Shown here: piece by piece, positions 2,099 through 27,025 of the stretch | Position numbering within the stretch: position 1 is the first letter of the stretch | Layout: each line of letters opens with the position of its first letter | IMG/VR virus record: IMGVR_UViG_3300027734_000237 | Location: 1-29,642 of that record | Direction: 5' to 3' (one strand) | Length of the DNA stretch: 29,642 nt | Source: a virus | Lineage: Duplodnaviria; Caudoviricetes | The notes under the pieces: generated by a model | Database searches by the model: none | What the model was told of the DNA's origin: nothing | Seen by the model: the letters and a program-made list of their open reading frames with translations, nothing else | Program-made: the position numbers and the translations under genes

Positions 2099-2129
2099 TT
2101 GACAAACTAATATCTTTTTAGACTACAAT
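2099..2129 (+). promoter_or_regulatory. Putative sigma70 early promoter
   Basis: TTGACA-N19-TACAAT upstream of the first rightward gene, followed by a CACACC/GGTGTG hairpin. Spacer is longer than optimal. Confidence 0.5.
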
Positions 2130-2174: not shown

Positions 2175-2369
2175 ATGCAAAAACTCTTAAATGCATACAA
2201 GGTCAGCCCCTCACAGGACAACCTCAAACGCCTTATTGCCTACAGCCGTAAGCACCCCTTTGCTTCCATCATGTTGAATGCAGATGATGCCAAGCTGTTG
2301 ATGACCCTCGAACATGAGGTAGAGGCCTTGCTCAAGCAAGCCCGCCAACTGGCCATGGATTCAATCTGA
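2175..2369 (+). CDS. Hypothetical early protein
   Basis: ATG at 2175 after CAGGAC. First gene of the rightward block. Confidence 0.7.
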   Translation: MQKLLNAYKVSPSQDNLKRLIAYSRKHPFASIMLNADDAKLLMTLEHEVEALLKQARQLAMDSI

Positions 2370-2424
2370 CATATCAGCGGTAAGCCCGATGGGCTTATCA
2401 GTGCTATGTCGCACTACTTGGAGA
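2366..2424 (+). repeat. Structured intergenic repeat, copy 1
   Basis: CTGACATATCAGCGGTAAGCCCGATGGGCTTATCAGTGCTATGTCGCACTACTTGGAGA; aligns with 3093-3152. Confidence 0.85.
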
Positions 2425-2432
2425 ACCAAACC

Positions 2433-2765
2433 ATGACTGTCAATATTGATCGCTTCCAACCAACAGCCACTGCCCTGACTGCCACTGCTGTTGTGGCCAA
2501 CCTCAAAGCCCGCCTCAAGATGGCACAGCGGGATTACCTGTCATTCCCCAACGCCACACGTTGGAACGTCCAAACACGTGACGCATTTGTCTATCAGCAA
2601 GCGTTCTACTTTTTTAATGCTGTCAGCCGTTCCTATGAGGACAAAAACGCCTGTCTCATTGCACTGGGTGCTGAGTCCAATGGCAACTGGGGTGACGTGA
2701 TCTGCCAACATGCGTTTGGCCTGACCCTGACAGCCGCTTTGCGTGAACACGCCAACTGCCCTTAA
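2433..2765 (+). CDS. Hypothetical early protein
   Basis: GGAGA RBS then ATG at 2433. Confidence 0.75.
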   Translation: MTVNIDRFQPTATALTATAVVANLKARLKMAQRDYLSFPNATRWNVQTRDAFVYQQAFYFFNAVSRSYEDKNACLIALGAESNGNWGDVICQHAFGLTLTAALREHANCP

Positions 2766-2790
2766 TTCAATCAACTTCGGAGAATCAACC

Positions 2791-3096
2791 ATGGTCACAG
2801 AGCAAGTCAGAGACTATACGCACCTGTCAAAGGATCACAAGGGCGTGTTTGGTCAGATGGTCTACAACTACAGGTCACCCACGCATTGGGGCAGTGATGG
2901 CCTGTGCGAGATTCGGGTCAGCTTTTGGGGTGACCTCAAAGAGGCTGAGGTGCAATTCAGCTACTCATCGGGCGGTTGGAACAAAGGGTTCACCAACTTG
3001 CAGATTGCCGAGGCAATGAAAGAGGCCTTTGCCCTTGCGGAGCACCGCTTGGCCGTGCTTGAAAAGTGCCCTTGGCAAGCTCAGGTTGTCGCCTGA
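2791..3096 (+). CDS. Hypothetical early protein
   Basis: GGAGA RBS then ATG at 2791. Confidence 0.75.
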   Translation: MVTEQVRDYTHLSKDHKGVFGQMVYNYRSPTHWGSDGLCEIRVSFWGDLKEAEVQFSYSSGGWNKGFTNLQIAEAMKEAFALAEHRLAVLEKCPWQAQVVA

Positions 3097-3152
3097 CATT
3101 ACAGCGGTAAGCCCTGCGGGGTTTACCAGTGGAATGTCCCACTGATTGGAGA
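3093..3152 (+). repeat. Structured intergenic repeat, copy 2
   Basis: CTGACATTACAGCGGTAAGCCCTGCGGGGTTTACCAGTGGAATGTCCCACTGATTGGAGA; shows compensatory changes relative to copy 1. Confidence 0.85.
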
Positions 3153-3160
3153 TCTTAAAA

Positions 3161-3769
3161 ATGAACCAACTACATGCTAACCGTGAGGACTGGTTGAATG
3201 CCGCTGTCGATGAACTCCGGCCGTTCTTCTCTTCCAATGGCCACACCCTGCCCGCTGAGATTCGGGTTGCCTGTGCCTATCCAACCAATGCCAAACGCTC
3301 CGGCTTCAAGGTGCTTGGCCAGTGCATCCCAAACACCAACAGTGCTGACGGCCACTTTGAGATCTTTGTCTCACCGCAGATTGACAACCCTTACAAGGTC
3401 ACTGAGGTTTTGATTGCCCAACTGGCTTGCACTGCCAAGGGTGCGTTGAATCAGGCCAACCAAGCTTACGCCAAGGTTGCCGAGGCCATGCACATCTTGC
3501 CCGATGGCAACAAGTCCAACCCCTACTATGAAACCAACCATGGTGCGGCCTTTGACCTTGCCTATGCGGCCATCATTCAATCACTGGGTGACTACCCTCA
3601 CGCCAAGGTTGACGTGACCACACATAAGACCCAAGGCACACGCCTGTTGTTGGCCGTGTGCCCAACGTGCGGTTGCAAAATCCGCATGACCGCCAAGTGG
3701 ACGTTGAATGCACACGGTGACGTGGATCTGCCCACGTGCCGCTGTGGTGACCTGTTTAACCTTGTTTGA
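3161..3769 (+). CDS. SprT-like phage protein with C-terminal zinc ribbon; HExxH motif degenerate
   Basis: REDWLNAAVDELRPFF...SADGHFEIFVSP...LGDYPHAKVD...CPTCG...CRCG resembles phage SprT-like proteins. The expected HExxH position reads AQLAC. Confidence 0.65.
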   Translation: MNQLHANREDWLNAAVDELRPFFSSNGHTLPAEIRVACAYPTNAKRSGFKVLGQCIPNTNSADGHFEIFVSPQIDNPYKVTEVLIAQLACTAKGALNQANQAYAKVAEAMHILPDGNKSNPYYETNHGAAFDLAYAAIIQSLGDYPHAKVDVTTHKTQGTRLLLAVCPTCGCKIRMTAKWTLNAHGDVDLPTCRCGDLFNLV

Positions 3770-5225: not shown

Positions 5226-6233
5226 ATGACAAAAGCAAAATACCGTGGATGGGAATTCAAATCTGCCCTCACTGCGGCCATTCACAAGATGGCCTCAGAT
5301 CTCAAGATCAAACGTGTTATGGTGACCTTTAAGGATGAGATCCCAACAGCGGCCATCAACCGCCATGGGCAGATCTACATCACCAACATTGCAGATGATG
5401 CCGTGCTGACCCGCTTTGACCTTGAGCGTTTCACTGGCTTTGCCCTGCATGAGTTACTGCACCGCAAGTTCACCAACTTTGATGCCATCGACAATTCAAA
5501 GGTGAGTTACCTTGTGCAATTGCACAATGGTTTGGAGGATGCCTACATTGAGAATCGTGCCGTGGCTGAGAAGCTGACAGGCAATGCCGAGGGCTTGCTC
5601 CGCACCCTGATTGACAACATGGCACGTGAGGGCTTGGCCGAGGTGTCAGATTGGGCTGACCCCCGCCAATATCCCTTTGCACTGGCCGTCTATGCACGTA
5701 AGCACAGCACCGTGCAGATCCCATTGGCCAAGGGCTTGAAGCCCATTTTCGATGAGGCTTGCAAGCGTTTAAACACATGCAACTCCACGCATGACACATG
5801 GGCACTGGCTGAGTGGGTGTTTGACCAACTCAAACAGATTGGCAAACCTCAACAGCCCACACAACCCGATCAGCCTCAGGATCAGCCAACCAACGGCCAA
5901 CCTTGTGATGATGGCAACCCCAGTGACCAAGAGGGCGGCAATACCCCTACAGAGGCCGGAGAGGGGGGCACAAGCCCCGATCAGGGACAGGGTGAGGGTG
6001 ATGCCCCAACTCAGGGAAAAAACGCCCCTGAGGCCGGAGAGGCTCAGTCCCCCATCAAGGGTGAGAAGCAAACCTCAAAGGGCAAAGTGCTTGTGATTGC
6101 CAAGCCCCGCTCAACTGAGCCTAAGGCTGACGTGCCCGACTCTGCCAAGCAGTGCGGATCAATCAGCAACTGGGTTGTGACAAAGGATGCCTACCACGTA
6201 GGTGATGTTAGACGTTGGTCAATTGACTTTTAA
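5226..6233 (+). CDS. CobT-N-like protein with HExxH motif and low-complexity acidic Gln/Pro/Gly linker
   Basis: ALHELLHRKFT and LHNGLEDAYIE motifs typical of N-terminal domains of CobT-like vWA partners. AAGGA RBS. Confidence 0.75.
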   Translation: MTKAKYRGWEFKSALTAAIHKMASDLKIKRVMVTFKDEIPTAAINRHGQIYITNIADDAVLTRFDLERFTGFALHELLHRKFTNFDAIDNSKVSYLVQLHNGLEDAYIENRAVAEKLTGNAEGLLRTLIDNMAREGLAEVSDWADPRQYPFALAVYARKHSTVQIPLAKGLKPIFDEACKRLNTCNSTHDTWALAEWVFDQLKQIGKPQQPTQPDQPQDQPTNGQPCDDGNPSDQEGGNTPTEAGEGGTSPDQGQGEGDAPTQGKNAPEAGEAQSPIKGEKQTSKGKVLVIAKPRSTEPKADVPDSAKQCGSISNWVVTKDAYHVGDVRRWSIDF

Positions 6234-6241
6234 GGACTGCC

Positions 6242-6901
6242 ATGATCCCCGCAAAATTACGTTATGAAATTCGCAAAATGTTTGAGAACTCAGGCACTGA
6301 GGAATTCGACACCAACCGCAAAACAGGTTCAATCAACGTCAACGCATTGGCAGGGTATGGCCACACTGACCGCCTGTTTAAACGTAGGACTGAGGTAGCA
6401 GGAATTGACTCAGCAGTGACTATTGTTTTGGACTGCTCCGGCTCGATGGGTGATGAGCCTGAGCGCATGGCAAACGCTGTGCCTGTGGCCTACGCTTTGT
6501 TGGACACATTGGCTCAGGCCGGAGTGCCAACCTCACTGGTGACATTCAGCAGTAACGTTTCAGTGCTCAAGCCGTGGTCAATGCCCGCCAAAAAGGTCAA
6601 AGGCATGTTGGAGCGTTTAAACACATCTGGTAGCACCAATGACTATGCGGCCGTGCAGTTTGCCCATGGCATGTTGCTCCGCAGATCTGAGGCACGTAGG
6701 GTTTGCTTTGTCCTCACTGACGGTGAGGGTGAGCCGGACGCAACACGTGCCCAGTGCGAGTCAGGCACACGCCTTGGCATCACAACCATTGGCATTGGCA
6801 TTCTGCAATTTGTGCAACATGTCTACCCCAATGCAGTGCGTGTCAACAACGTGGCTGACATGGGCACTGTGGCATTCACCAAGCTTAAGCTTGCCGCCTG
6901 A
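6242..6901 (+). CDS. von Willebrand factor A domain protein (CobT C-terminal-like)
   Basis: MIDAS motif VLDCSGSM, GSTND, VLTDGE. Own RBS AAGGA at 6232. Confidence 0.88.
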   Translation: MIPAKLRYEIRKMFENSGTEEFDTNRKTGSINVNALAGYGHTDRLFKRRTEVAGIDSAVTIVLDCSGSMGDEPERMANAVPVAYALLDTLAQAGVPTSLVTFSSNVSVLKPWSMPAKKVKGMLERLNTSGSTNDYAAVQFAHGMLLRRSEARRVCFVLTDGEGEPDATRAQCESGTRLGITTIGIGILQFVQHVYPNAVRVNNVADMGTVAFTKLKLAA

Positions 6902-12341: not shown

Positions 12342-12501
12342 GTAATTAAGTACTTATTGCCGAAAATATTTTGGGGTGCTACCGGCAGCGCACCGCTGCA
12401 ACCGTTTAAACCTGCACGCCGGGCCTGAATTTTTGTTTAAACACCTACGCCGGGCTGGTTGCTGCTGGCCGGGTTTTGGTTTAAACTAAGGCACTCTCTC
12501 C

Positions 12502-12960
12502 TCAGCAGTTGCCTTTGTTGAGTTTGCCCCGTCCGGTTCGCTTGACGGGGTTTTTTTTGGGCGCTACCTCAGAGATCTTTTCAATGATGATCTCTGCCCT
12601 AGGGTTCTCAGGGTCTAGCCCCCAGTAGCAGTGCCGCTCCTTAACCTGTCGGTCGTTCGCATATATAAGACCCTGCATCAAGTCTAGGATTAGGCTCTCA
12701 TCCAAGTCGGGTCGTCGTGATGCATAAAAAATATGCAGAGTAACCCGCAGATCCCCTGTCATTAGTGTAGGCAATGGCTTGCACTGTTGCCTAAAAACAT
12801 CAGAATAACTTAATGCTTTAGCAGACTTAATCAGTCTAGACATACCACCGTAGTGTACAACTCTACGAGAGTTTGCTTTAGAAGCTGGTTCACCAAAAAT
12901 AATTTGTGATAGCACTTGCAATTCTTGTGTAACATCACTATCATTGTGTTTCGGATTCAT
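12502..12960 (-). CDS. rusA: RusA-like Holliday junction resolvase (start uncertain)
   Basis: GEPASKANS, RRPDLDESLILDLMQGLIYANDRQV, NPRAEIII are RusA acidic motifs. Confidence 0.82.
   Translation of the reverse strand: MNPKHNDSDVTQELQVLSQIIFGEPASKANSRRVVHYGGMSRLIKSAKALSYSDVFRQQCKPLPTLMTGDLRVTLHIFYASRRPDLDESLILDLMQGLIYANDRQVKERHCYWGLDPENPRAEIIIEKISEVAPKKNPVKRTGRGKLNKGNC
12916..12944 (+). promoter_or_regulatory. Putative sigma70 promoter
   Basis: TTGCAA-N17-TATCAT, ending 34 nt before ATG 12979. Confidence 0.55.
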
Positions 12961-12978: not shown

Positions 12979-13845
12979 ATGAAGATAACAAACAAACAGA
13001 ATCTACCCGCACCGTTAGTGGCTTTGCTCTCACGTAACTACTACAGCAAAGGTGCATCACAGTATAGCGTGACTGAGTTAATGTCGCCACCAAAGATTAG
13101 AAGGTTGCGCGAACAGTATGAAGCTGAGATGGAGATTGACGTAACCAAAATGATTGCCTCACAGCTAGGCACATTCATGCACGGCAAGCTTGAAGCTAAG
13201 GAAGTCGTTGGCTATACCAACGAGGAGCGCATCTTTACAGAGGTCGATGGAATCGTTATCAGCGGAGCGATTGACCTACAGCAACATGTAGAGGGCGGGG
13301 TCATCATCATTGACTACAAGTTTGTCAAGGCGTGGTCGGTCAAGCAGGGTAAGGCTGACTGGGAAACGCAGTTGAATGTCTACAAGTGGTTGGTTGAGAC
13401 AGTCAAGGGAGTGCCAGTCAAAGGCTTACAGATCTGCGCCATCATTAAAGATTACTCTGCACATGACACCTCCGAGGGCTACCCCGAAGCTGAGGCTGTG
13501 ATGATTGATGTCCCACTATGGGACTCGGTTAAGACTGAATCCTTTGTTCGTCAGCGGTTGGAGATGCACCGTAACGCCAAAGTTAACCATGAATTTGGTG
13601 AGGAGCTACAGGCTTGCACCGATGAGGAAAGATGGATGAGTGAAACCGTCTTTGCTGTGAAGAGAGAAGGACGCAAGTCTGCGATCCGTTTATTTAAAAC
13701 TATTGAAGAAGCCACAGAGTTGGCAGAAAAGGAAAAAGGCTATGTCGAAACCCGCCAAGGAGAACCAAAGCGATGCACAGGAGATTTCTGTGGAGTCAGC
13801 AAGTGGTGTAAACAGTACCAAGGAGAAATCAATGTCCCCGCATGA
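12979..13845 (+). CDS. PD-(D/E)XK exonuclease (Cas4/RecB-like)
   Basis: GTFMH, EER, SGAIDL, IIDYK, QLNVY, and C-terminal CTGDFCGVSKWC cysteines. GGAGAG RBS. Confidence 0.85.
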   Translation: MKITNKQNLPAPLVALLSRNYYSKGASQYSVTELMSPPKIRRLREQYEAEMEIDVTKMIASQLGTFMHGKLEAKEVVGYTNEERIFTEVDGIVISGAIDLQQHVEGGVIIIDYKFVKAWSVKQGKADWETQLNVYKWLVETVKGVPVKGLQICAIIKDYSAHDTSEGYPEAEAVMIDVPLWDSVKTESFVRQRLEMHRNAKVNHEFGEELQACTDEERWMSETVFAVKREGRKSAIRLFKTIEEATELAEKEKGYVETRQGEPKRCTGDFCGVSKWCKQYQGEINVPA

Positions 13846-14518
13846 TTTACTAAAGCTCAACGTCAACGAGCACACCGAGAAGAAGAATGGCCTGACGTAC
13901 CTGTCATGGGCGTGGGCATGGGCTGAGGCTCTCAAGGCCGACTCCACTGCGTCGTTCATTGTTCACACATTCGCTGACAAACCTTACATGGATGTTAACG
14001 GTACAGGAATGGTATGGGTCACCGTCACCATGTTTGGCCAAGGGCGTACCTGTATGTTGCCTGTGATGAACCACCGCAACCAACCTATCCAAAGCCCTGA
14101 CGCTTTCCAAGTTAACACTGCCATCATGCGATGCATGACCAAGGCTTTAGCTTTGCATGGATTGGGTCTGTACATCTATAGCGGTGATGATCTTCCGCAG
14201 TCAGATGAACCCACCACCATGGGCGAACTGACCAAGAAAGAGGATGCACCCAAGTACGAGAAGATCATTGCTAAGACTGCGCCTAAGAAGACGATTCAGC
14301 CTACTGAATGGGATCCATCTGACGAAAGCCGCAAGTTCTTTGCCGAGTCAATGATTGAGTGGACGAGCCACTGTACCGAAGTATCTGGTTTAAACAGCTA
14401 CTGGAAGAGCAATGAACTTCAGCTTGATTCGCTGAAGACAACGCACCCCTCTTTGTATAAAGAGGTTTTAGACCGCTTCAAAACATTGAAGCTTCAACTA
14501 ACTGAGGAAAAGAAATGA
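13832..14518 (+). CDS. Sak-like single-strand annealing protein (DUF1071 type)
   Basis: VNEHTEKKNGLTYLSWAWAW...LPVMNHRN...NTAIMRCMTKALALHGLGLYIYSGDDLP. Confidence 0.88.
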   Translation: MSPHDLLKLNVNEHTEKKNGLTYLSWAWAWAEALKADSTASFIVHTFADKPYMDVNGTGMVWVTVTMFGQGRTCMLPVMNHRNQPIQSPDAFQVNTAIMRCMTKALALHGLGLYIYSGDDLPQSDEPTTMGELTKKEDAPKYEKIIAKTAPKKTIQPTEWDPSDESRKFFAESMIEWTSHCTEVSGLNSYWKSNELQLDSLKTTHPSLYKEVLDRFKTLKLQLTEEKK

Positions 14519-18296: not shown

Positions 18297-18576
18297 GCCA
18301 CTGCTTGACCTTGTGAGGCAATGCCCTTGTCAAAGGTGCGGGGTTGAGGATGGGACGGTTGTAGCCTCCCATTCCAACCAACAGCGGGACGGTAAGGGCA
18401 TGGGCATCAAGGCTCATGACTACCGAATTGCGGCATTGTGCTACGCCTGTCACATGCTCATAGACCAAGGCAAAGACTTTGGCAAGCAGGCTAGGTTTGA
18501 TGCTTGGGATGAAGCCCATCGAAAGACCATTGGATGGCTATTCGAGGGGGGTCATCTTACGATACGTTTGCCTTAA
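18283..18576 (+). CDS. DUF1364-like / His-Me-finger putative nuclease
   Basis: CQRCG..DGTVVASHSN...GKGMGIKAHD...LCYACH. Confidence 0.75.
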   Translation: MYRSRPLLDLVRQCPCQRCGVEDGTVVASHSNQQRDGKGMGIKAHDYRIAALCYACHMLIDQGKDFGKQARFDAWDEAHRKTIGWLFEGGHLTIRLP

Positions 18577-21500
18577 GCGTATTGATGTTTGCGGTCAAGG
18601 CGTTCTGAGCTTGGTTGATTCTTAGTAGCGCATCCCGCTTGGCATCAGCGTCCATCCTAGAGCTACGGATCATGACTTGCATTTGACGGAACTCCTTCAT
18701 GGTTTTTTCCATGTCAAGGATAAATTCTTTAGAGGCAAGAAGCTTAATGTTGTCTCGCATGAACTCGCCCTTTTCCTCAAAGTTCATGGTTCGCTCTAGC
18801 AAATTAGAAGTTCGGACGGCTTGGTCAGCCGCATTTTTTAATTCGTAGTAGCTGGTGACCGTACCTCTTGCCTCTGGATCCAACGCAAAACGTTTGATAA
18901 GCGGCATCTGCTCAAAGCGTTTAGACGCATTAGGCGTGTCGCTATTCATGTTCATGATTGAATCTAAAGCACTGACCATATACATGCCCATGGTTCCCGT
19001 GTAGCCGCCAATGATGTGGTCAAGCTTCATGGGAGAGATACCCAACGCAGACCCAATTTGAGCCGCTATGGCTGAGGTGTTGGGGCCAACTTGGTACTCA
19101 GGTGCAATACCTTCCATGCCCTGACCAACAATGGCTCGTTGCGTGAAGAATGAGTAGTTAGTGGTCGCTTCCACCAAAGGCAAAGCCGCCTGAGGAATGG
19201 GATTTACCGCCAATGTACTGCTTAACTGGCGTGCCATGGACTTCATGAAGTCTTTGCCTGTATCGTCGCCAAAGAAGTAAGCCATTGTTCGCTCAGGAAT
19301 AACCTTGAAAATGACACCAATCTCAAATGGGATTGGGATCTTGACACCCAATGATGGGACAAGCCAGTTGTTATCTTTGGTTTCTTGCTCTTGTTTTTTG
19401 TACTCATCATCATCATGGGTGAGTGCCCAGTACATGGCAGACAGAGCGGCCATGGTCATGCCACGGACAAAGAAAGAACGTTGGATAGCGGCCGCATCCT
19501 TGTGACCCAACTTACCAAATGAAGCGCGGTACAGAACATCCAAGCCCTGCATACGGGCGTTCAAGAACGGGATGGCCGCAGTCAAAATACGAACGACAGG
19601 AGAGCTACCCTTGCGGTTAAAGTTCATTACCTCAAGCGCACGGAACAGAGCTTCTGCCTCGTTGCCAGTTTCTGCGAGGGTGCGTTTATACACCTCAATC
19701 CTTGTGGCAGCGTCAGATGCGGTTGTACCTTTCTCCAACAATTCCCACAAAGATTTAGGGGCAGTCATAGGATTAGCAAGGCGCTCAAGCGTTGACTTAC
19801 CGCCAGCCTTTTTCTTTAACTCGTTTTCAAACGCCTGAGCACTGACCTCAACGTTCTGAGAGAACTCGTAGCCGCCCAGCAAGCCTGCGTTTAAAAGGGC
19901 TTGGAACTCTGGGGATGTGCCTGCCATGGCAGACTTGAAGTTTTTAATGGTGTCGATGACTGGAGTCATCTTGATACCACTCGTTACGTAGGCGGCCATG
20001 GAGTCACGCACCATATTGGCCATCATGAATCCGGGATCCTTAGTCACCAAGTTACGCAAGAGATTAGCCGGGCCAGACAACAGGCCAATAAACGGCAAGT
20101 CAGGCATGTTTAAACTCTTGACCGCATCAATAAACAACGGGTCGTGTACACGGTAGCTGACCATGTTGCCGTTCTCAAGCACTTGAACAACGTCCAAGCC
20201 TGCGCCTGCTTTAGGCATACGCTCTGCTTGATTGATCTTGACAGCCACATCAACAGCACGCTGTGCCGCCACATTCTTCATGCCCATCTGAATAGAAGAC
20301 TGGGTGTTGCGAACAATAGTCTCAAGGAAGTCGGCCAACGGAGCCTCGCCACCTTTGATCTTCTTAGGAGCTTTCACGCCTGAGATAGACTGGAAGATGT
20401 TAGGGCCAATGGTGCTGTCGCCATCCATCTGACGATAGAAGGGGATGTAGTCGGAATGCTTGGTAAAGGCTTCCTTCTGAGCTTCAGACAGGACACCTGT
20501 GTCCACAAGGAACTGAACCAGCCCGTTGTTAAACGTGTTCCAGTCTTCTTGAATCTCTTTAAACTCAGGGTATTGTGATGCAGCCGGATTAGCTGGATCA
20601 CACAGTTTCTTGGCCAGATCCAAGTCAGCCTGTGTAAACAACTCTTCTTTGCCATCGGCCAGCAGACGTGAGCCACGCTGTGCGCCCGCCCAGAATTGAT
20701 ACAACTGATACACAAATGGGTCGTTGTACTTGGCCAACGGAGCAAAGATGGCCACTGGGCCTTTAATCTTGCCATCGTCATTAAAGACTGTAGTGAAGCC
20801 ATTCTTATAGACTGGGATACCACCGTTGCGATCATGTACACCCATAGCAGACGCAGTGACACCGGCCGCAAGGTCAGACATCAGAGCCGCAGATTCTGCG
20901 CTTGCGTCAGCCATGAATGCCGCACCGCCCATGGTCTTGGCCAACTCTTTGTCGTAGTCTGCTAGACGCTGGTATCTGTTTAAAGCCTGTGCACGGAGCT
21001 TGGAGAAAGACTCGCCACCCAGTGCCTTGGTAATACGCTCAACGAAACCCGTCTCCTCACGGGAGGTAGTTGTCTCGTCAACACGACCACGGATAGCTGG
21101 GTCAGTGGAATCACGTAAGCTTAAACGCTCCTGCTTTTGTGGCCCGGCGTAATCCTGCGCCCCTTCCTCGCGTGTAAACGGCATAGGAATGGATGCGTAT
21201 TCACGCAGCGCACCTTCTTCGGCAACGATACGCTCAGGCCAAGACTCGCTGTAATCAAACTTCTCAGGATCAGTCTGCTCAGACCAACGAATTTCGGTAC
21301 GCCATTCAACTGGCATGGTTGTGTAGCCTGCGGCTTGAAGCGCACGGGCACGGTGTCTGCCTTCATGGCCTGTAACCCGTAGGTTGTTGCCATCTTTGGA
21401 CATGTAAAGATATGGGATTGATGTGAATTTCAATCCTTCTTGTTCACGTTTCTGAGCAAGAATTTCTTTTTCTTTGTTAAAGCCAAACTTAGCCAACTTC

Positions 21501-24500
21501 AAGAAGTCAGCAATATCCATGTTGACCAGTTTGTTTTTAGATTTGTATCCCTGCTCAGAAGCTTTCTCTATCTCAGCGGGGTCAAATCTATCTGTTGCAT
21601 CACGCAAGCTATAGCGGATGTCAGGATTAGACTTGTCAAAGGTTCCTATGTTGCCTGTAGCAGACTTAATCTGCGATGGGTCATAGACTGCAAGATTTCT
21701 AGTGCCGCCTTCGTTTACATAAAAACCATCGTGCCCCAGTTTTTTAATGGCATCTTGGACAACTTGGCTCTCAATGGTTTCCCACTCACCACGTTTAATC
21801 TGATACAAGATGTCGGGGTCATCTGAAAAATTGTAAGACTTTTGCATTTGTCTATATAGATCTGCGACTTGAGCAGAATCTTTGTAGTCAAATGGATCTT
21901 GTGCACTTACATACACAGGCATTACGTTAGGGCCAGTTGGTAATCTATCGTGCACCGCCTTGATGACGTAGTCTGCTACCGCACTGGGAATAGAACTCCA
22001 AGCAAATCCGTAATTTGGATCAATCCGAGACTTAAGTAACTGGGCTGTAGATGCGCCAATATCTTTGGCTTTTCTAGCAACTTTGATGGCATCCAACACC
22101 ATCTTGTTTTGCTCGTCAATGTCTAGAGTATTCCAGTACTCACGGCTAATATAGTTCATGCCTGCGTCAGAGAAACCTTCGGCAAAGCTAGGGTTGTCCG
22201 TTACAAAAATTGCATTAGCTTGCTTGGGTTTAAACGTAGTAATGTCACGCGCAGTTCCGTGGTACATAACTTTTGGCGTGTCGTCTGAGTTAACGACCAC
22301 ACTGTTGCCAAACCATTGTTTAAACTCAGGCGTATCCGGCGCAGCACGCAGGCTTAGTCGTTCGTCTTCTTCAAGCTGCCCACCAGTTGCATCAGGGCTT
22401 TGGCTCTTTCCTTGGGGTCTAATCCCACCGTCAGATCCTTCACTGAAGACCACAGAGGGTCGCGCTCGTCCATCACCCTCACGGGCTTGGGCGATGATTG
22501 CTTCTTCGTATCCGATGTCATCTGCTTTCCTTCCGCTTAATTTTTCGTATAAACGTTTCTCGTAGTACCACAAAGCCGCTTGGATGTCGGCCAGTGTTAA
22601 ATCAATACCTTCGTCACGCAACATCTGTTGTGCCTTACGGCCTGCGTCGTACATGAACTTACGATCTGTTGCTGTAAACGGAGCCTCTTCCAGCATTTCA
22701 AATTCGTTCTTGTAGATGGTGTTAGCCATTTTTTCCATGTTGTGTTCAAACAACAGTTGGTCGTAAGCTTCAGCCGCTACCTTTTCGGCTTTCTTAAACC
22801 ATGCGGCTTTCTCAGCTTTCTTGGCGGGTTCTTTTGCACCAACCAGATGCTCAAGCTCACTGTTCCAACCGTACTCTTCGTACTTGTTACGCAACGGAAT
22901 GGTGGCGGCAACCACTTCATCACGGCTTGCGCCCGGTTGCTCCATCATGTCACGGAATTTCTCAATAGAAGCCTCCGTGGCCTTAGGCATCAACAGACCA
23001 CGCATGCGGTTGATGGAGCGAGTCCACCACAAGTCCATGGTCAGGTAACCTTCTGAGCCTGACAGGTTGGCGTAGAACGCACCAAGCTTAGGGCCAAAGT
23101 ACACAGCGGCCGCAGGCACAACTGTATTGGCTAAATAGCTACCGTCAGATTCTTCGCCACGCTCACGCAGTCGGGCATTCATTTCCTTGACTGTGATTTC
23201 TTGAAGCAAGACCTTCTCAAAGTCATCACCGTGTGTGTCAAGCAACTCTTGAATCATGACAAGGTTGTTCTCTAGAGCCGTAGCCCTGCGGTTACCCATG
23301 GCAACTAAGGGTTTACCCATACGCAAATCAGCATACAGCTTGATGGCGTTATCAATGTTCTTTGTTACTTTCTCACCGTTGGATGTCACTGCCACCAAGG
23401 CAGAGAACACTGAACGGGCGTGCTTGTTCTTTTCAAGCTCAGGGAAACGCTCGGCCAGTCGGCTAACGGCATTAGGATAGTTGTTGGAGTACCAGCCAAG
23501 GCCTGTACCAGTCTTGGCAGTTGTGCCCAGTTGGTATGCCACCTCATCAGCAATAGCCTGTGCAATCTGCGTTGATTGTTGAGGCGTAAGGTTGTTGCGA
23601 TCCATTGCGCCAAACTGATCCAGTGTGTACTGATTCAAAGCCTTGGCGATGTCCCGGACGTTATTAAATCTATTTCGTACAGCCTCGGTGTTTAAACCCA
23701 ACTCCTGCTGGGCTGTGCCGGTCTTGCGTTCCATAATGCCACGGGTCGAGAAAGGAACTCCCTCTCCAGACAATGACTTCCTCTCGCCACCTTCGGTAGC
23801 TGTACCAGCTTTCAGTTCGCCACGTTCAATCTGACCAAAGACATCCTCGTATGTGCGGAAACCTGCTCCTGCCAATGCATTACGCAGCGCAGTAAAGAAG
23901 TCATTTAAACGCTTCATCAGCGCTGCCAGCATTCCTGCTGGGGGTTTATTGTTGGCAAAGTCAGCAAACGCATCAGCGATTGCTTCCTCAATGACCTTGT
24001 CTATGTCGCCTTTGTATTCTTTTACATAAGCGTCATAGCGGGACATGGTCTGCCCGTTATAGGATGCATTACGGCTCTTAAGGTACTTATCAATCCACTG
24101 ATCCTTGGCCATGCGCTCAAGCGCAGTCCATTGCTGAGGTGTAAAGAAACCCAGTTCCTTTAGGGCGTGGATAGACTCATGACGCAGAATCTTGGCAGGA
24201 TTAGACAAGTCCAAGGCAATCTGGATAAGCTTCTTGCTGTACGAACCTTCAGACTTAAGATTCTCAATAATGTTTAAACCTACGTCGCCCAAGCCAAACT
24301 GCTTCAGCATAGGTTTGAGCAAAGCTTCAAACTGAGCGATCCGCTCTTTGGCTCCGGGAGTCTGCTTGGCTTCTTCTGCCTTAGCCTTCTCAGCCTCAAT
24401 GCCTTCTAAGACTTCAGAAACCTTCTTACCCTCAGTCTGTGGAGCGGCAGTTCTGCGTTTGATCTCAGCTTCAGCCTTCTTACCAATGGCACGACGGCCT

Positions 24501-27025
24501 TGCTGTTGAGTTAACTCTTGCAGTTGCTTCTCGTCCATGTCGGCCAAGATGCCTTCTTCAGCCGCCTGACGGGTGGGGTAGGTAGCCCTAGCCTGACCCT
24601 GATCAAACACTGTGTAGCCCTTACGGCCAACGGCTTTAGTGCCTGTAGGCTTGACCTCTAGCGGTGTAGCCTTAGGATCGTACTTGGCGATCTCTTCAGT
24701 CAGGGTTGCAATTTTTGCTTGAGTCTCTTCGACCAACTTGGCATGGCGACCGGCAGCTTTCTCGTACTGGGTCGTCTGGCCTTTGCCCTGAGCCTCTAAT
24801 GTGTTTAAACGCTTCTGGCTGGCTTCAATGGCGTTGTTCAACTGCGTGATTTGGTTCTCACGAGCGTTAGCCATACCGGCACGAGTACGCTCAAAGCTTG
24901 CCTTCTTGGCGTTGGCTTCTTCGACTGTGTTGGCTTTAAACAGGACTTCTTCCCCGGCGGAAACTTCGTAACCTGCTGGAGCCTCACCCTCTTTAAACGA
25001 GCCTTCCCGGATGTCAAATCCTTCGGGCAACGTGGCGGAGGTGGACGGAGCGGCAATCGCATCCGTTGTAATCTGTCTTACGTTTAAACCACGCTTCTTT
25101 GCTGCCGCGTCAGCAGCGGTTTTAGATGCGTAGGTAGACGGCAAAGCCTTGCCGGTCTTGGGATCAAAGACTTCATAGCGGGCAGACTTAATAAGGTCTA
25201 CATCACCATTCTTAATCGCTGCATCAAGGATAGCGCCAGCATGTGAGTCTTCAGTAAGGTTTGTATATTCCTTAATGGTGTCGATCACTTGCTTGGTATC
25301 AGCAGGCGCACCTAAATCATTGAGGAACATGTCCACACCCTTGAGGGCACGAGCATATTGTTTGTCGTCAAACCGTCGGGCGTTTGTGCCTTCGGGTAGG
25401 ATGTTTAAATCTGTAGCTTCTGGCAGGTTAGCCAGTGCTTTAAACGCAGCGTGCAACTGCGGCTGGGACATCTTCTCTAGTGCGTTTACACCAGTTGTCC
25501 GGGCCAAGAAATCGTTGAAGCCCTGAGTCTTAGTCTCAACCTTCTTACGCTTGGCTTGGTTCAGAATGTCTTCTGCGGTGTATTTCTCACCGGCATAGCC
25601 AGACTTGGCGGTAATGAGTTCGTCCAGCAAAGCCTGCTCGGCCTTAGGGTTAACCCCCGGCATAGCATCCACAAAGTCCTCAATCGAGTACTCCTTGAGC
25701 TTGGGAAGGCCAGCCTCCTTGCGGTAGTCATCGATCTGCTTGTAGATGTCAAAGGGAACTTCGTTCTTACGGATGTTGCCTAGAGGGTTCTTGAGCGGGT
25801 CAATTTGTACTTCTTCAGCGGGGATTTCCTCAGCCGGTGCAGGAAGAGCAATAGCTTGCTGTTGCTCCATCTGTTGACGGATACCTTCTGTTTGTTTTTC
25901 CAAAACAGCACGTTCTGCCACTGCCTTGTCATTAGCAGCTTTAAGTTCTTGGTCAAATTGAGCTTGCTTCTTTGCTTGGTCATCGGCTTTAGCTTGTTGA
26001 TGCGAACGTTGCAGATTAGACATCTGCGCGGGAGAGACAGCAAGACCTAGGACTGCACCGACCAAAGCATCATGGGCAACTGTACCGGCCAAACCTTCTG
26101 TCAAATCTGTAGCCACGCCAGCTTGATTCAAAGCGACGTTAGTGCCCACTTGACCCACACCGGCCTGCACAGCTTCAGGCGCAGCTTCGCCCAGCACAGA
26201 TGTGCCGACAGCTTGTTTAAACGTTGGAGCATCCAGCGATGCCACGCCGTTAGCTTTGCTGACCTTCTTAGCCGCATTAGCCAAAGCCTGTTCAACACCG
26301 AATGCGCCTTCCAGTGCACCAGCCGCACCAGCGGCAAGTTGTCGTGGAGCGTTCTGCAATGAGTACGCAGCAGCCTCTTGGGCCTTCTGCTCGGCAATCA
26401 TTGGGTCTACGCCTTGGGCTAACAAGGCCTGTTTAACCGCCTCGTAGTCTTGTCCCTTTTGACCGCCAACGCCCATCAAGCCACCAATACCTGTGGCTCC
26501 ACGTGCGCCTGCTAATGCCCTAGCGCCAAGGCTTGCGCCTGCGGCTACCTGACCACCGGGCAATAAGCCACCGGCAATAATAGGAACGCTAGAAGCCAGT
26601 GCCTGCAAACCTGTCTGTAATGGAGCCTCTAAGAAACCACCCACACCAGTGGAAATCTCTTTACCTAAGTCACCTTTGGCGCGATCTTGAAGCTCTTGCC
26701 GACGGGCAATTTCTTCTTTACGGGCGGGGGACAGTGCCTCAAACGCAGATTGCTGTACGCCACCTAAATATTGAGAGGCTGCATTATCTGTACCAAACAG
26801 GTTAGTAAGAGATTGAATACCTCCCACTAAACCCTGTCCAGTAGCAAGGCCAACGTCCTTTAAAGTACTGGGTGCGCTTTTGGCAGACTCCAGTTCTTTT
26901 GTGGTCTGCCCTGCGTATGGGTAATTCTGTAATACCAGACCATACACCTGATCGTCAGTCGCACCTTCCGGGGCGTTTACACGATACTTATTCCCATCCG
27001 GAGCGGTGTACTGATAAATTGCCAT
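18557..27025 (-). CDS. Large polyvalent internal virion (ejection) protein, 2822 aa
   Basis: Ala/Gly-rich N-terminus, zincin motif HESIH, ART-like YHGT..IFVT..GHDG module, ParB/Srx-like HEGRHR module, LPD38-like C-terminus (NFNRKG..IPFLNARMQG..KIPIPFEIG). Confidence 0.85.
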   Translation of the reverse strand: MAIYQYTAPDGNKYRVNAPEGATDDQVYGLVLQNYPYAGQTTKELESAKSAPSTLKDVGLATGQGLVGGIQSLTNLFGTDNAASQYLGGVQQSAFEALSPARKEEIARRQELQDRAKGDLGKEISTGVGGFLEAPLQTGLQALASSVPIIAGGLLPGGQVAAGASLGARALAGARGATGIGGLMGVGGQKGQDYEAVKQALLAQGVDPMIAEQKAQEAAAYSLQNAPRQLAAGAAGALEGAFGVEQALANAAKKVSKANGVASLDAPTFKQAVGTSVLGEAAPEAVQAGVGQVGTNVALNQAGVATDLTEGLAGTVAHDALVGAVLGLAVSPAQMSNLQRSHQQAKADDQAKKQAQFDQELKAANDKAVAERAVLEKQTEGIRQQMEQQQAIALPAPAEEIPAEEVQIDPLKNPLGNIRKNEVPFDIYKQIDDYRKEAGLPKLKEYSIEDFVDAMPGVNPKAEQALLDELITAKSGYAGEKYTAEDILNQAKRKKVETKTQGFNDFLARTTGVNALEKMSQPQLHAAFKALANLPEATDLNILPEGTNARRFDDKQYARALKGVDMFLNDLGAPADTKQVIDTIKEYTNLTEDSHAGAILDAAIKNGDVDLIKSARYEVFDPKTGKALPSTYASKTAADAAAKKRGLNVRQITTDAIAAPSTSATLPEGFDIREGSFKEGEAPAGYEVSAGEEVLFKANTVEEANAKKASFERTRAGMANARENQITQLNNAIEASQKRLNTLEAQGKGQTTQYEKAAGRHAKLVEETQAKIATLTEEIAKYDPKATPLEVKPTGTKAVGRKGYTVFDQGQARATYPTRQAAEEGILADMDEKQLQELTQQQGRRAIGKKAEAEIKRRTAAPQTEGKKVSEVLEGIEAEKAKAEEAKQTPGAKERIAQFEALLKPMLKQFGLGDVGLNIIENLKSEGSYSKKLIQIALDLSNPAKILRHESIHALKELGFFTPQQWTALERMAKDQWIDKYLKSRNASYNGQTMSRYDAYVKEYKGDIDKVIEEAIADAFADFANNKPPAGMLAALMKRLNDFFTALRNALAGAGFRTYEDVFGQIERGELKAGTATEGGERKSLSGEGVPFSTRGIMERKTGTAQQELGLNTEAVRNRFNNVRDIAKALNQYTLDQFGAMDRNNLTPQQSTQIAQAIADEVAYQLGTTAKTGTGLGWYSNNYPNAVSRLAERFPELEKNKHARSVFSALVAVTSNGEKVTKNIDNAIKLYADLRMGKPLVAMGNRRATALENNLVMIQELLDTHGDDFEKVLLQEITVKEMNARLRERGEESDGSYLANTVVPAAAVYFGPKLGAFYANLSGSEGYLTMDLWWTRSINRMRGLLMPKATEASIEKFRDMMEQPGASRDEVVAATIPLRNKYEEYGWNSELEHLVGAKEPAKKAEKAAWFKKAEKVAAEAYDQLLFEHNMEKMANTIYKNEFEMLEEAPFTATDRKFMYDAGRKAQQMLRDEGIDLTLADIQAALWYYEKRLYEKLSGRKADDIGYEEAIIAQAREGDGRARPSVVFSEGSDGGIRPQGKSQSPDATGGQLEEDERLSLRAAPDTPEFKQWFGNSVVVNSDDTPKVMYHGTARDITTFKPKQANAIFVTDNPSFAEGFSDAGMNYISREYWNTLDIDEQNKMVLDAIKVARKAKDIGASTAQLLKSRIDPNYGFAWSSIPSAVADYVIKAVHDRLPTGPNVMPVYVSAQDPFDYKDSAQVADLYRQMQKSYNFSDDPDILYQIKRGEWETIESQVVQDAIKKLGHDGFYVNEGGTRNLAVYDPSQIKSATGNIGTFDKSNPDIRYSLRDATDRFDPAEIEKASEQGYKSKNKLVNMDIADFLKLAKFGFNKEKEILAQKREQEGLKFTSIPYLYMSKDGNNLRVTGHEGRHRARALQAAGYTTMPVEWRTEIRWSEQTDPEKFDYSESWPERIVAEEGALREYASIPMPFTREEGAQDYAGPQKQERLSLRDSTDPAIRGRVDETTTSREETGFVERITKALGGESFSKLRAQALNRYQRLADYDKELAKTMGGAAFMADASAESAALMSDLAAGVTASAMGVHDRNGGIPVYKNGFTTVFNDDGKIKGPVAIFAPLAKYNDPFVYQLYQFWAGAQRGSRLLADGKEELFTQADLDLAKKLCDPANPAASQYPEFKEIQEDWNTFNNGLVQFLVDTGVLSEAQKEAFTKHSDYIPFYRQMDGDSTIGPNIFQSISGVKAPKKIKGGEAPLADFLETIVRNTQSSIQMGMKNVAAQRAVDVAVKINQAERMPKAGAGLDVVQVLENGNMVSYRVHDPLFIDAVKSLNMPDLPFIGLLSGPANLLRNLVTKDPGFMMANMVRDSMAAYVTSGIKMTPVIDTIKNFKSAMAGTSPEFQALLNAGLLGGYEFSQNVEVSAQAFENELKKKAGGKSTLERLANPMTAPKSLWELLEKGTTASDAATRIEVYKRTLAETGNEAEALFRALEVMNFNRKGSSPVVRILTAAIPFLNARMQGLDVLYRASFGKLGHKDAAAIQRSFFVRGMTMAALSAMYWALTHDDDEYKKQEQETKDNNWLVPSLGVKIPIPFEIGVIFKVIPERTMAYFFGDDTGKDFMKSMARQLSSTLAVNPIPQAALPLVEATTNYSFFTQRAIVGQGMEGIAPEYQVGPNTSAIAAQIGSALGISPMKLDHIIGGYTGTMGMYMVSALDSIMNMNSDTPNASKRFEQMPLIKRFALDPEARGTVTSYYELKNAADQAVRTSNLLERTMNFEEKGEFMRDNIKLLASKEFILDMEKTMKEFRQMQVMIRSSRMDADAKRDALLRINQAQNALTANINTLKANVS

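Follow-up and report, generated by a model that had tools for sequence, protein, structure and literature searches.

RNase III is described as needing 11 base pairs on one side of the cut in vitro. For the proximal box, PMC1540722 and PMC6212723 describe a position 2 that excludes G-C and C-G and a position 1 that prefers G-C, and the in vivo sites of PMC6212723 have two paired positions between the staggered cuts, usually with a G-C pair. A quoted consensus for the enzyme opens with W-N-A (PMC4357697), and the new RNase III sites reported in PMC5371410 share no striking consensus. Terminal pairing is described as protecting the 5′ end of RNA in work on RNase J1. The pistol ribozyme, found between phage genes, is built according to PMC4604425 from helices P1, P2 and P3, a pseudoknot from the P1 loop to the P2-P3 junction, a two-base cleavage junction and 10 conserved nucleotides.

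The window, by which we mean the whole 29.6-kb stretch of DNA analysed here, is a piece of a podovirus-like phage. It encodes a terminase small subunit, a primase-helicase whose closest relatives in cultured phages are less than 33% identical, a Sak annealing protein, an exonuclease, an ejection protein and a 2822-AA polyvalent protein; the last (18557-27025) carries ART-PolyVal and LPD38 domains and adjoins predicted ejection genes. Two copies of an intergenic element (2367-2424 and 3094-3152, spaced by 727 nt) lie near the start of a rightward operon of small genes, as an earlier note on this DNA had described; a search of the window for a third copy found none. The operon is probably early, with a promoter-like sequence upstream: a sigma-70-like candidate with a 19-nt spacer was read by eye at its head (2099-2129, plus strand), and a promoter scan with a spacer limit of 16-18 nt did not list it. 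The first gene, on the plus strand like all those that follow, encodes 64 AA (2175-2369), has no PHROG or Pfam family and ends in a UGA stop (2367-2369) that overlaps copy 1. Between the copies lie a 110-AA ORF (2433-2765) and a 101-AA ORF (2791-3096), neither with an assigned function, the second ending in a UGA stop (3094-3096) that overlaps copy 2. The junction before the 101-AA ORF has no element in the window, and an element is present there in a relative (L292). Copy 2 precedes a 202-AA ORF (3161-3769; phrog_6361, function not assigned), followed by genes for a MoxR/CobS-like ATPase and a CobT-like vWA protein. The CobT-like gene behind the ATPase consists of two adjacent ORFs (5226-6233 and 6242-6901), one matching the N-terminal and the other the C-terminal part of a single family, phrog_1576.

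In both copies the upstream UGA stop overlaps the element and a TTGGAGA ribosome binding site (RBS) closes it, and three helices are kept between the two through compensatory and G-U changes, all as first reported. For each copy, none of 200 shuffles folded as well (z −3.14 and −4.23). In copy 1, the 5′ arm of the lower helix (2368-2378) comprises P1a (2368-2373) and a 5-nt linker (2374-2378) and is followed by the upper hairpin P2 (2379-2399) and the hairpin P3 (2400-2415), which has 5 bp and a 6-nt loop that is P1b; positions 2400-2410 double as the 3′ arm of a long hairpin. The Shine-Dalgarno sequence (SD) and start (2418-2435) include TTGGAGA at 2418-2424 and the start codon at 2433. Copy 2 has the same parts on the same strand: a lower-helix 5′ arm at 3095-3105 (P1a 3095-3100, linker 3101-3105), P2 at 3106-3127, P3 at 3128-3143, and SD and start at 3146-3163 (TTGGAGA 3146-3152, start codon 3161).

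These copies belong to a covarying family with at least 104 distinct cores in uncultured phages; among cultured phages the element was covered by no record. A first pattern scan of viral contigs gave 79 stretches in 72 distinct contexts, and further scans with a structural descriptor brought this to 132 contexts and 104 distinct cores, with L212, L386 and L409 (judged by eye) and all GTDB loci left out before counting; a metagenome scan gave 94 additional stretches. The order of parts is fixed: P1a of 6 nt, linker of 5 nt, P2 of 20-36 nt, P3a of 5 nt, a 6-nt loop that is P1b, and P3b of 5 nt. The SD follows P3 by 4-6 nt in 108 of 132 contexts, and AUG follows it by 14-19 nt in 115 of 132.

The proposed structure was said to stand or fall with covariation in a larger alignment, and this was found: P1, P2 and P3 each show two-sided pair changes among the 104 cores, which are kin and therefore do not count as independent tests. 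In this alignment 95.8% of the cells are paired vs. 75.9% in column shuffles, with none of 500 shuffles as high, and slid partners pair in 30.8-46.0% of cells. The searches fixed GUG/CAC, and often GACA, in the lower arm, so the invariance of this arm is partly built in. A scan that used no P1 or P2 information still gave all five of five P1 pairs in 23 of 36 P2-bearing matches vs. 0 of 84 P2-less ones, and the free P3 pair was complementary in 35/36 vs. 44/84. With the covariance model, four near-complete genomes were found to carry 1-3 copies each and a fragment of 7.9 kb to carry 7, copies within one genome or fragment always being a few kb apart at most.

The element has no Rfam match. The two weak matches in the window at E≤5 both lie elsewhere; 20 short loci gave four weak matches at E≤10, none convincing, and 20 long loci gave none at the gathering score, so that no known ribozyme stands beside the copies in those 20. 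At window positions 12495-12558, two Rfam models of betaproteobacterial sRNAs match weakly and below the gathering score, mostly over a terminator-like hairpin with a U run. In GTDB bacterial genomes (18 of 64 parts scanned with a loose pattern) none of 120 loci had a convincing element, and the covariance model found nothing among the 150 candidates scored in each of four bacterial genomes. Two looser viral patterns gave, among the matches listed, one already known variant and none in 100 of 120 loci, respectively. Our literature search, which covered the large motif catalogues in part, found no description of the element, and motif strings gave, among the matches listed, those of primer type only.

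Related intergenic elements that keep the logic of two pairing partners occur in a form with a 5-nt loop (L003, L028, L037, L038, L611) and in a form with a longer linker pairing (L035, L598); the covariance model did not score these seven. Remnants with P3 and RBS and without a normal P2 are seen at L584:363-406, L552:1093-1160 and L576:1890-1949. A divergent copy in a much larger phage contig (L087, 229 kb) scores −23.0 at the register predicted below, and the family may thus reach beyond the phage group of the window. The palindrome GTTTAAAC, possibly a protein-binding or modification site, occurs 40 times in the window (580-29571) vs. 0.55 expected from shuffles, both within and between genes, and also lies 3′ of several P3-less copies of the element in relatives.

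Whether the helices form one pseudoknot or two alternative folds had been left open in the earlier note. Two alternative folds are what our results support; a static pseudoknot is neither supported nor needed. In the first fold, the 11-nt stretches flanking P2 lie opposite each other and extend it to a symmetric hairpin of about 20-23 pairs or positions, and the second fold is the 5-bp P3 hairpin beside the RBS. P3a can pair with the linker or with P3b, and the two pairings are mutually exclusive. The 11 nt on either side of P2 align in register, and the G and A once taken for conserved unpaired bases become G-G and C-A mismatches, and bulges are not required. In members that the covariance model found outside its training set, changes in P3 are compensated and the linker changes along with them; at least three pairs are kept in 15 of 16 linker/P3a types vs. 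a shuffled mean of 11.1, the types being related and hand-picked. In 98 of 104 cores the long hairpin has the lower energy of the two folds, and the folding model predicts nearly balanced folds for uncut RNA (P1 0.55, P3 0.41). G-U exceeds A-C on the sense strand in P1 (38:12), at the P2 base (88:0) and in P3 (7:0), indicating that mRNA is the folded strand.

We propose that the element is a T7-type processing site for host RNase III, whose downstream product refolds its first 16 bases into a 5′-terminal hairpin, a model to which we give a probability of about 75%. During transcription, P2 would pair first, then the linker and then P1, giving the symmetric hairpin with its invariant lower arm of 11 pairs. 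RNase III would bind this hairpin and cut the 3′ arm at the P2|P3 junction (2399|2400 in copy 1, 3127|3128 in copy 2), either alone or together with a cut in the 5′ arm two pairs higher (2380|2381 and 3107|3108). The free 3′ strand of P3 would then displace the linker, and ribosomes terminating on the stop inside P1 may help to strip off the upstream piece. In E. coli, 5′-terminal pairing protects mRNA. The released message, with P3 as its predicted cap in both copies, would start with a paired base 14-19 nt before AUG and so shield its 5′-monophosphate end from decay. Should only the single cut be made, P2 would remain as a hairpin at the 3′ end of the upstream mRNA. Folding of 127 predicted cut products gave P3 in 116 and a paired first base in 113. 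A search of five genomes found no phage-encoded RNase III, so the enzyme would be that of the host.

To evaluate the fit to RNase III, pair scores were taken from in vivo counts for the 85 E. coli substrates in Table S4 of PMC6212723, and 13 registers were scored per core against a strict (−25.5) and a loose (−33.8) threshold with a gapless ladder, which differs from the RNAduplex procedure of that source. The rules are those of E. coli and may differ in the phage host, and the RNase III hypothesis was formed after the conservation had been seen. The register ending at the first base of P3 was the best of 13 in 75 of 104 cores; on the gapless ladder all 104 passed the loose threshold there and 41 the strict one, leaving 63 below it. 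Copies 1 and 2 of the window scored −24.6 and −23.2 at this register (strict threshold −25.5; gapless ladder). Only 1 of 118 control hairpins from other phage passed the strict threshold with the best register allowed, and antisense strands passed in 0 of 104 cases at the P3 register and in 7 at their own best register. For cores outside the alignment the same register was best in 38 of 55, and 20 of 55 passed.

A blind scan of 6,450 window positions placed 3128 first and 2400 second, that is, the first bases of P3 in the two copies. Across 45 loci (the first 45 in locus order among those over 3.5 kb; about 2,400 positions each) the 80 elements had a median rank of 2, and the single best site was a P3 first base in 33 of 45; as long hairpins rank high in any such scan, the exact register alone is informative here. 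A second register, 5 nt lower, was best in 24 of 104 cores (37 of 104 on 14 core positions). When pair identities were shuffled with the mismatch positions held, only 48 of 104 cores outscored the shuffles at p<0.05 (median 0.063). Of 20 divergent variants picked by hand, only 7 were best at the P3 register and 3 passed the strict threshold; several of the 20 contain a single-base insertion, which a gapless ladder penalises. The same best register was kept in 7 of 12 P3-less copies. As a positive control, the best or second-best site upstream of T7 genes 0.3, 0.5, 1, 1.1 and 1.3 lay within 3 nt of what we take to be the R-site positions, with scores of −24.4 to −29.9; for gene 0.7 the same scan gave no good site.

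A cut at P2|P3a puts A-U at proximal box position 2 and G at position 1 (numbering of PMC1540722), and the staggered cut in the 5′ arm, between the second and third bases of P2, gives the same A-U/G pattern in the upper arm. The sequence of P2 was fixed by no search pattern, and its upper box position 2 holds G-C or C-G in 0 of 104 cores, against 81-99 of 104 at the flanking positions; the next position has G on the cut strand in 103/104, and W followed by G is kept in 33 of 36 distinct P2 starts. The lower box, partly fixed by the searches, has A-U in 104/104 and C-G or U-G in 103/104. Both positions between the staggered cuts are paired in all 104 cores, the first, next to the 3′ cut, being G-C or C-G in 98. 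With a lower arm of 11 positions in 104/104 and a P2 of 20-36 nt, the helix reaches about two turns with 11 pairs on at least one side; since RNase III needs an 11-pair helix beside its cut, this invariant arm suggests the enzyme. On the other side P2 is only 20-22 nt (8-9 pairs) in 47 of 104 cores, below the 11 pairs needed there in vitro. Lower-arm proximal box positions 3 and 4 do not carry A-U, which E. coli prefers: the positions beside the 3′ cut are mismatches, G-G in 95/104 and C-A in 93/104. In Table S4 of PMC6212723 these two occur in 6 and 5 of 85 substrates and are not preferred. Within this scoring model the long hairpin fits the pair preferences of E. coli RNase III in one register, and the reading as a processing site, one of those first offered for the element, is supported.

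The same structure could instead act uncut, as a P1+P2+P3 pseudoknot or a two-state hairpin that insulates neighbouring genes by blocking re-initiation or nuclease scanning, or that binds a protein other than RNase III. We consider this uncut insulator the main remaining alternative and rather improbable. P1 and P3 do both covary, P1b fills the P3 loop in a geometry like that of the pistol P1 loop, and the spacing to the RBS is tight; structure placed directly after a stop also lowers coupling, according to a review. However, the covariation of the linker with the 5′ strand of P3 is demanded by the long hairpin only, and the ban on G-C at one P2 position, together with the single preferred register, is left unaccounted for by an uncut element.

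Length (about 50 nt), interleaved helices and repeated occurrence between small genes of phages, where pistol, twister and hammerhead are found as well, might also speak for a new self-cleaving ribozyme, as the earlier note had considered. Pairing and RNase III preferences nevertheless account for almost all conserved bases. Divergent members keep no fixed unpaired base except one A, which is paired in the long hairpin. The lack of an Rfam match and the absence of the pistol P2 and of its two-base P3-P2 junction argue in the same direction, and we regard a ribozyme as extremely unlikely.

In 113 of 146 contexts with a called upstream ORF, the stop is placed exactly one base ahead of P1 (by majority in 38 of 57 protein families; 77 of 89 in an earlier, smaller count). 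Other upstream stops are mostly slightly upstream or mis-calls, and several far-upstream ones are mis-calls that count against the −1 peak. A further 50 contexts are without a called ORF, many of them leader copies; the looser filter kept two spurious window matches among these 50. Such a register would suit a translational switch in which a ribosome halting at the upstream stop opens P1, so that P3 can form and the state of the downstream RBS is altered with no cut, and masking a ribosome footprint in the folding model, at a size taken from general background, shifts P3 from 0.41 to 0.98. Yet neither fold covers the SD, and a ribosome on the stop lowers the cost of opening the RBS by just 0.6 kcal/mol (median difference, uncontrolled for the trivial masking effect); after the predicted cut the shift is 0.8 kcal/mol. 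With the SD uncovered and these shifts small, an RBS-occluding switch, suggested for this locus before, is weak. Moreover, 5′-leader copies without a called upstream ORF keep the whole structure, and the stop position also follows from the W-N-A consensus and compaction: W-N-A falls at the U-R-A stop of the element, and U or A precedes P1 in 98 of 104 cores, which gives a plain reason for the register of the stop. We judge a switch of this kind very unlikely. Stop-codon readthrough was rejected as well, there being no frame bias (38, 26 and 41 of 105) and 27 stop-free in-frame joins.

Processing by RNase III could itself be gated by translation. In this doubtful but possible version, which we put forward tentatively, the element would be a portable module of 50 nt that combines an RNase III switch controlled by the ribosome with a means of releasing its own product. 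As the stop codon lies within the distal recognition helix, a terminating ribosome would flip the RNA to the P2+P3 fold, which could not be cut, so that processing would depend on upstream translation; after a cut, P3 would strand-displace the duplex and cap the message. Any gene acquired with such a module would become a self-punctuating unit that can be shuffled.

Gene content between copies varies among relatives, a point on which the earlier note had called for a check. At least two downstream partners were found for 17 of 54 upstream families, and 15 of 104 identical cores stand in different gene contexts. These variations would also be expected of a DNA-level site, attC-like or HUH-type, that excises gene cassettes by site-specific recombination. 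Integron attC sites have an integron integrase, a fixed core triplet, one crossover point and a bottom-strand hairpin; the 5′ flank of our element, with its overlapping stop, resembles their inverse core. The whole element, however, has stayed with its upstream neighbour in 14 of 85 pairs and with its downstream one in 13 of 97. It thus travels with either gene and breakpoints occur at both edges, which leaves no single crossover. There is no fixed core triplet, the excess of G-U over A-C lies on the sense strand, and PF00589, PF01797 and PF00078 (tyrosine recombinase, Y1 transposase and reverse transcriptase) match in none of five near-complete genomes. With genes shuffling at either edge and no integrase in these genomes, the element is not attC-like, and the suggestion of such an ssDNA site is the least probable of the readings weighed here.

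Shuffling is best read as relaxed homologous recombination at the repeats, which would be a by-product of the processing site: the copies may serve as homology patches, probably through the phage Sak. Annealing proteins of the Sak type carry out relaxed recombination. The Sak single-strand annealing protein of the window (13703-14518, plus strand; PF06378, E 1e-41) has counterparts in all five near-complete relatives and is a candidate driver of this shuffling.

If RNase III processing is the right reading, the element is a natural 50-nt part that cleaves polycistronic mRNA and leaves the resulting 5′ end capped without any unpaired base, and more than 100 natural variants offer nucleotide-level predictions testable in E. 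coli. Covariation that looks like a pseudoknot or a ribozyme could then stem from a nuclease substrate adopting two folds in succession, which calls for care in compiling motif catalogues, and RNA processing would be linked to gene shuffling in phage early regions.

Several described systems share single features with the element. The pistol ribozyme as presented in PMC4604425 likewise has a short stem, a loop complementary to another strand and a phage intergenic context; the order of its parts differs, as had been noticed from the outset, and the element has neither the helix P2 and cleavage junction nor the Rfam match by which pistol would be recognised. With the DUF1874 motif and attC sites of PMC5737381 it shares a motif-ORF-motif arrangement in consecutive intergenic regions, whereas it comes without an Rfam match, an integrase or a single crossover; of the attC hallmarks, integrase, core triplet, one crossover and bottom-strand folding, we found none. 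Closer in behaviour are the PeSL cassettes of T4-type phages (PMC2839356), repeated intergenic stem-loops that also run from stop to SD and provide homology for small-gene shuffling without a dedicated recombinase. Flanking genes are shuffled among relatives here too, yet PeSLs are described as holding a sigma-70 promoter and a terminator, and a sense-strand scan for promoter-like and terminator-like sequences at both window copies gave no match. In the 5′ UTR of S. aureus cspA (PMC3386247), an RNase III cut leaves a stabilising 5′ hairpin, an outcome like the one proposed here, in a single chromosomal leader rather than a mobile repeat between phage genes.

The closest likeness is to the early R sites of phage T7 (R0.3-R1.3; R1.1 and uR1.1; PMC1540722, PMC3867540), described likewise as imperfect hairpins of about two turns between early genes and before the RBS. 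The A-U/G-C pattern in the proximal box is alike, and the element scores equal or beat those of the T7 sites found by our scan. In contrast to the unrelated hairpins of T7, however, it is one repeated homologous motif, has the upstream stop built into the base of its helix and can adopt a conserved second fold in which the product begins with a paired base, whereas for T7 genes 0.3, 0.5, 1 and 1.1 the products of the best-scoring sites are predicted to start unpaired (the top sites for genes 1 and 1.1 not being the known R sites).
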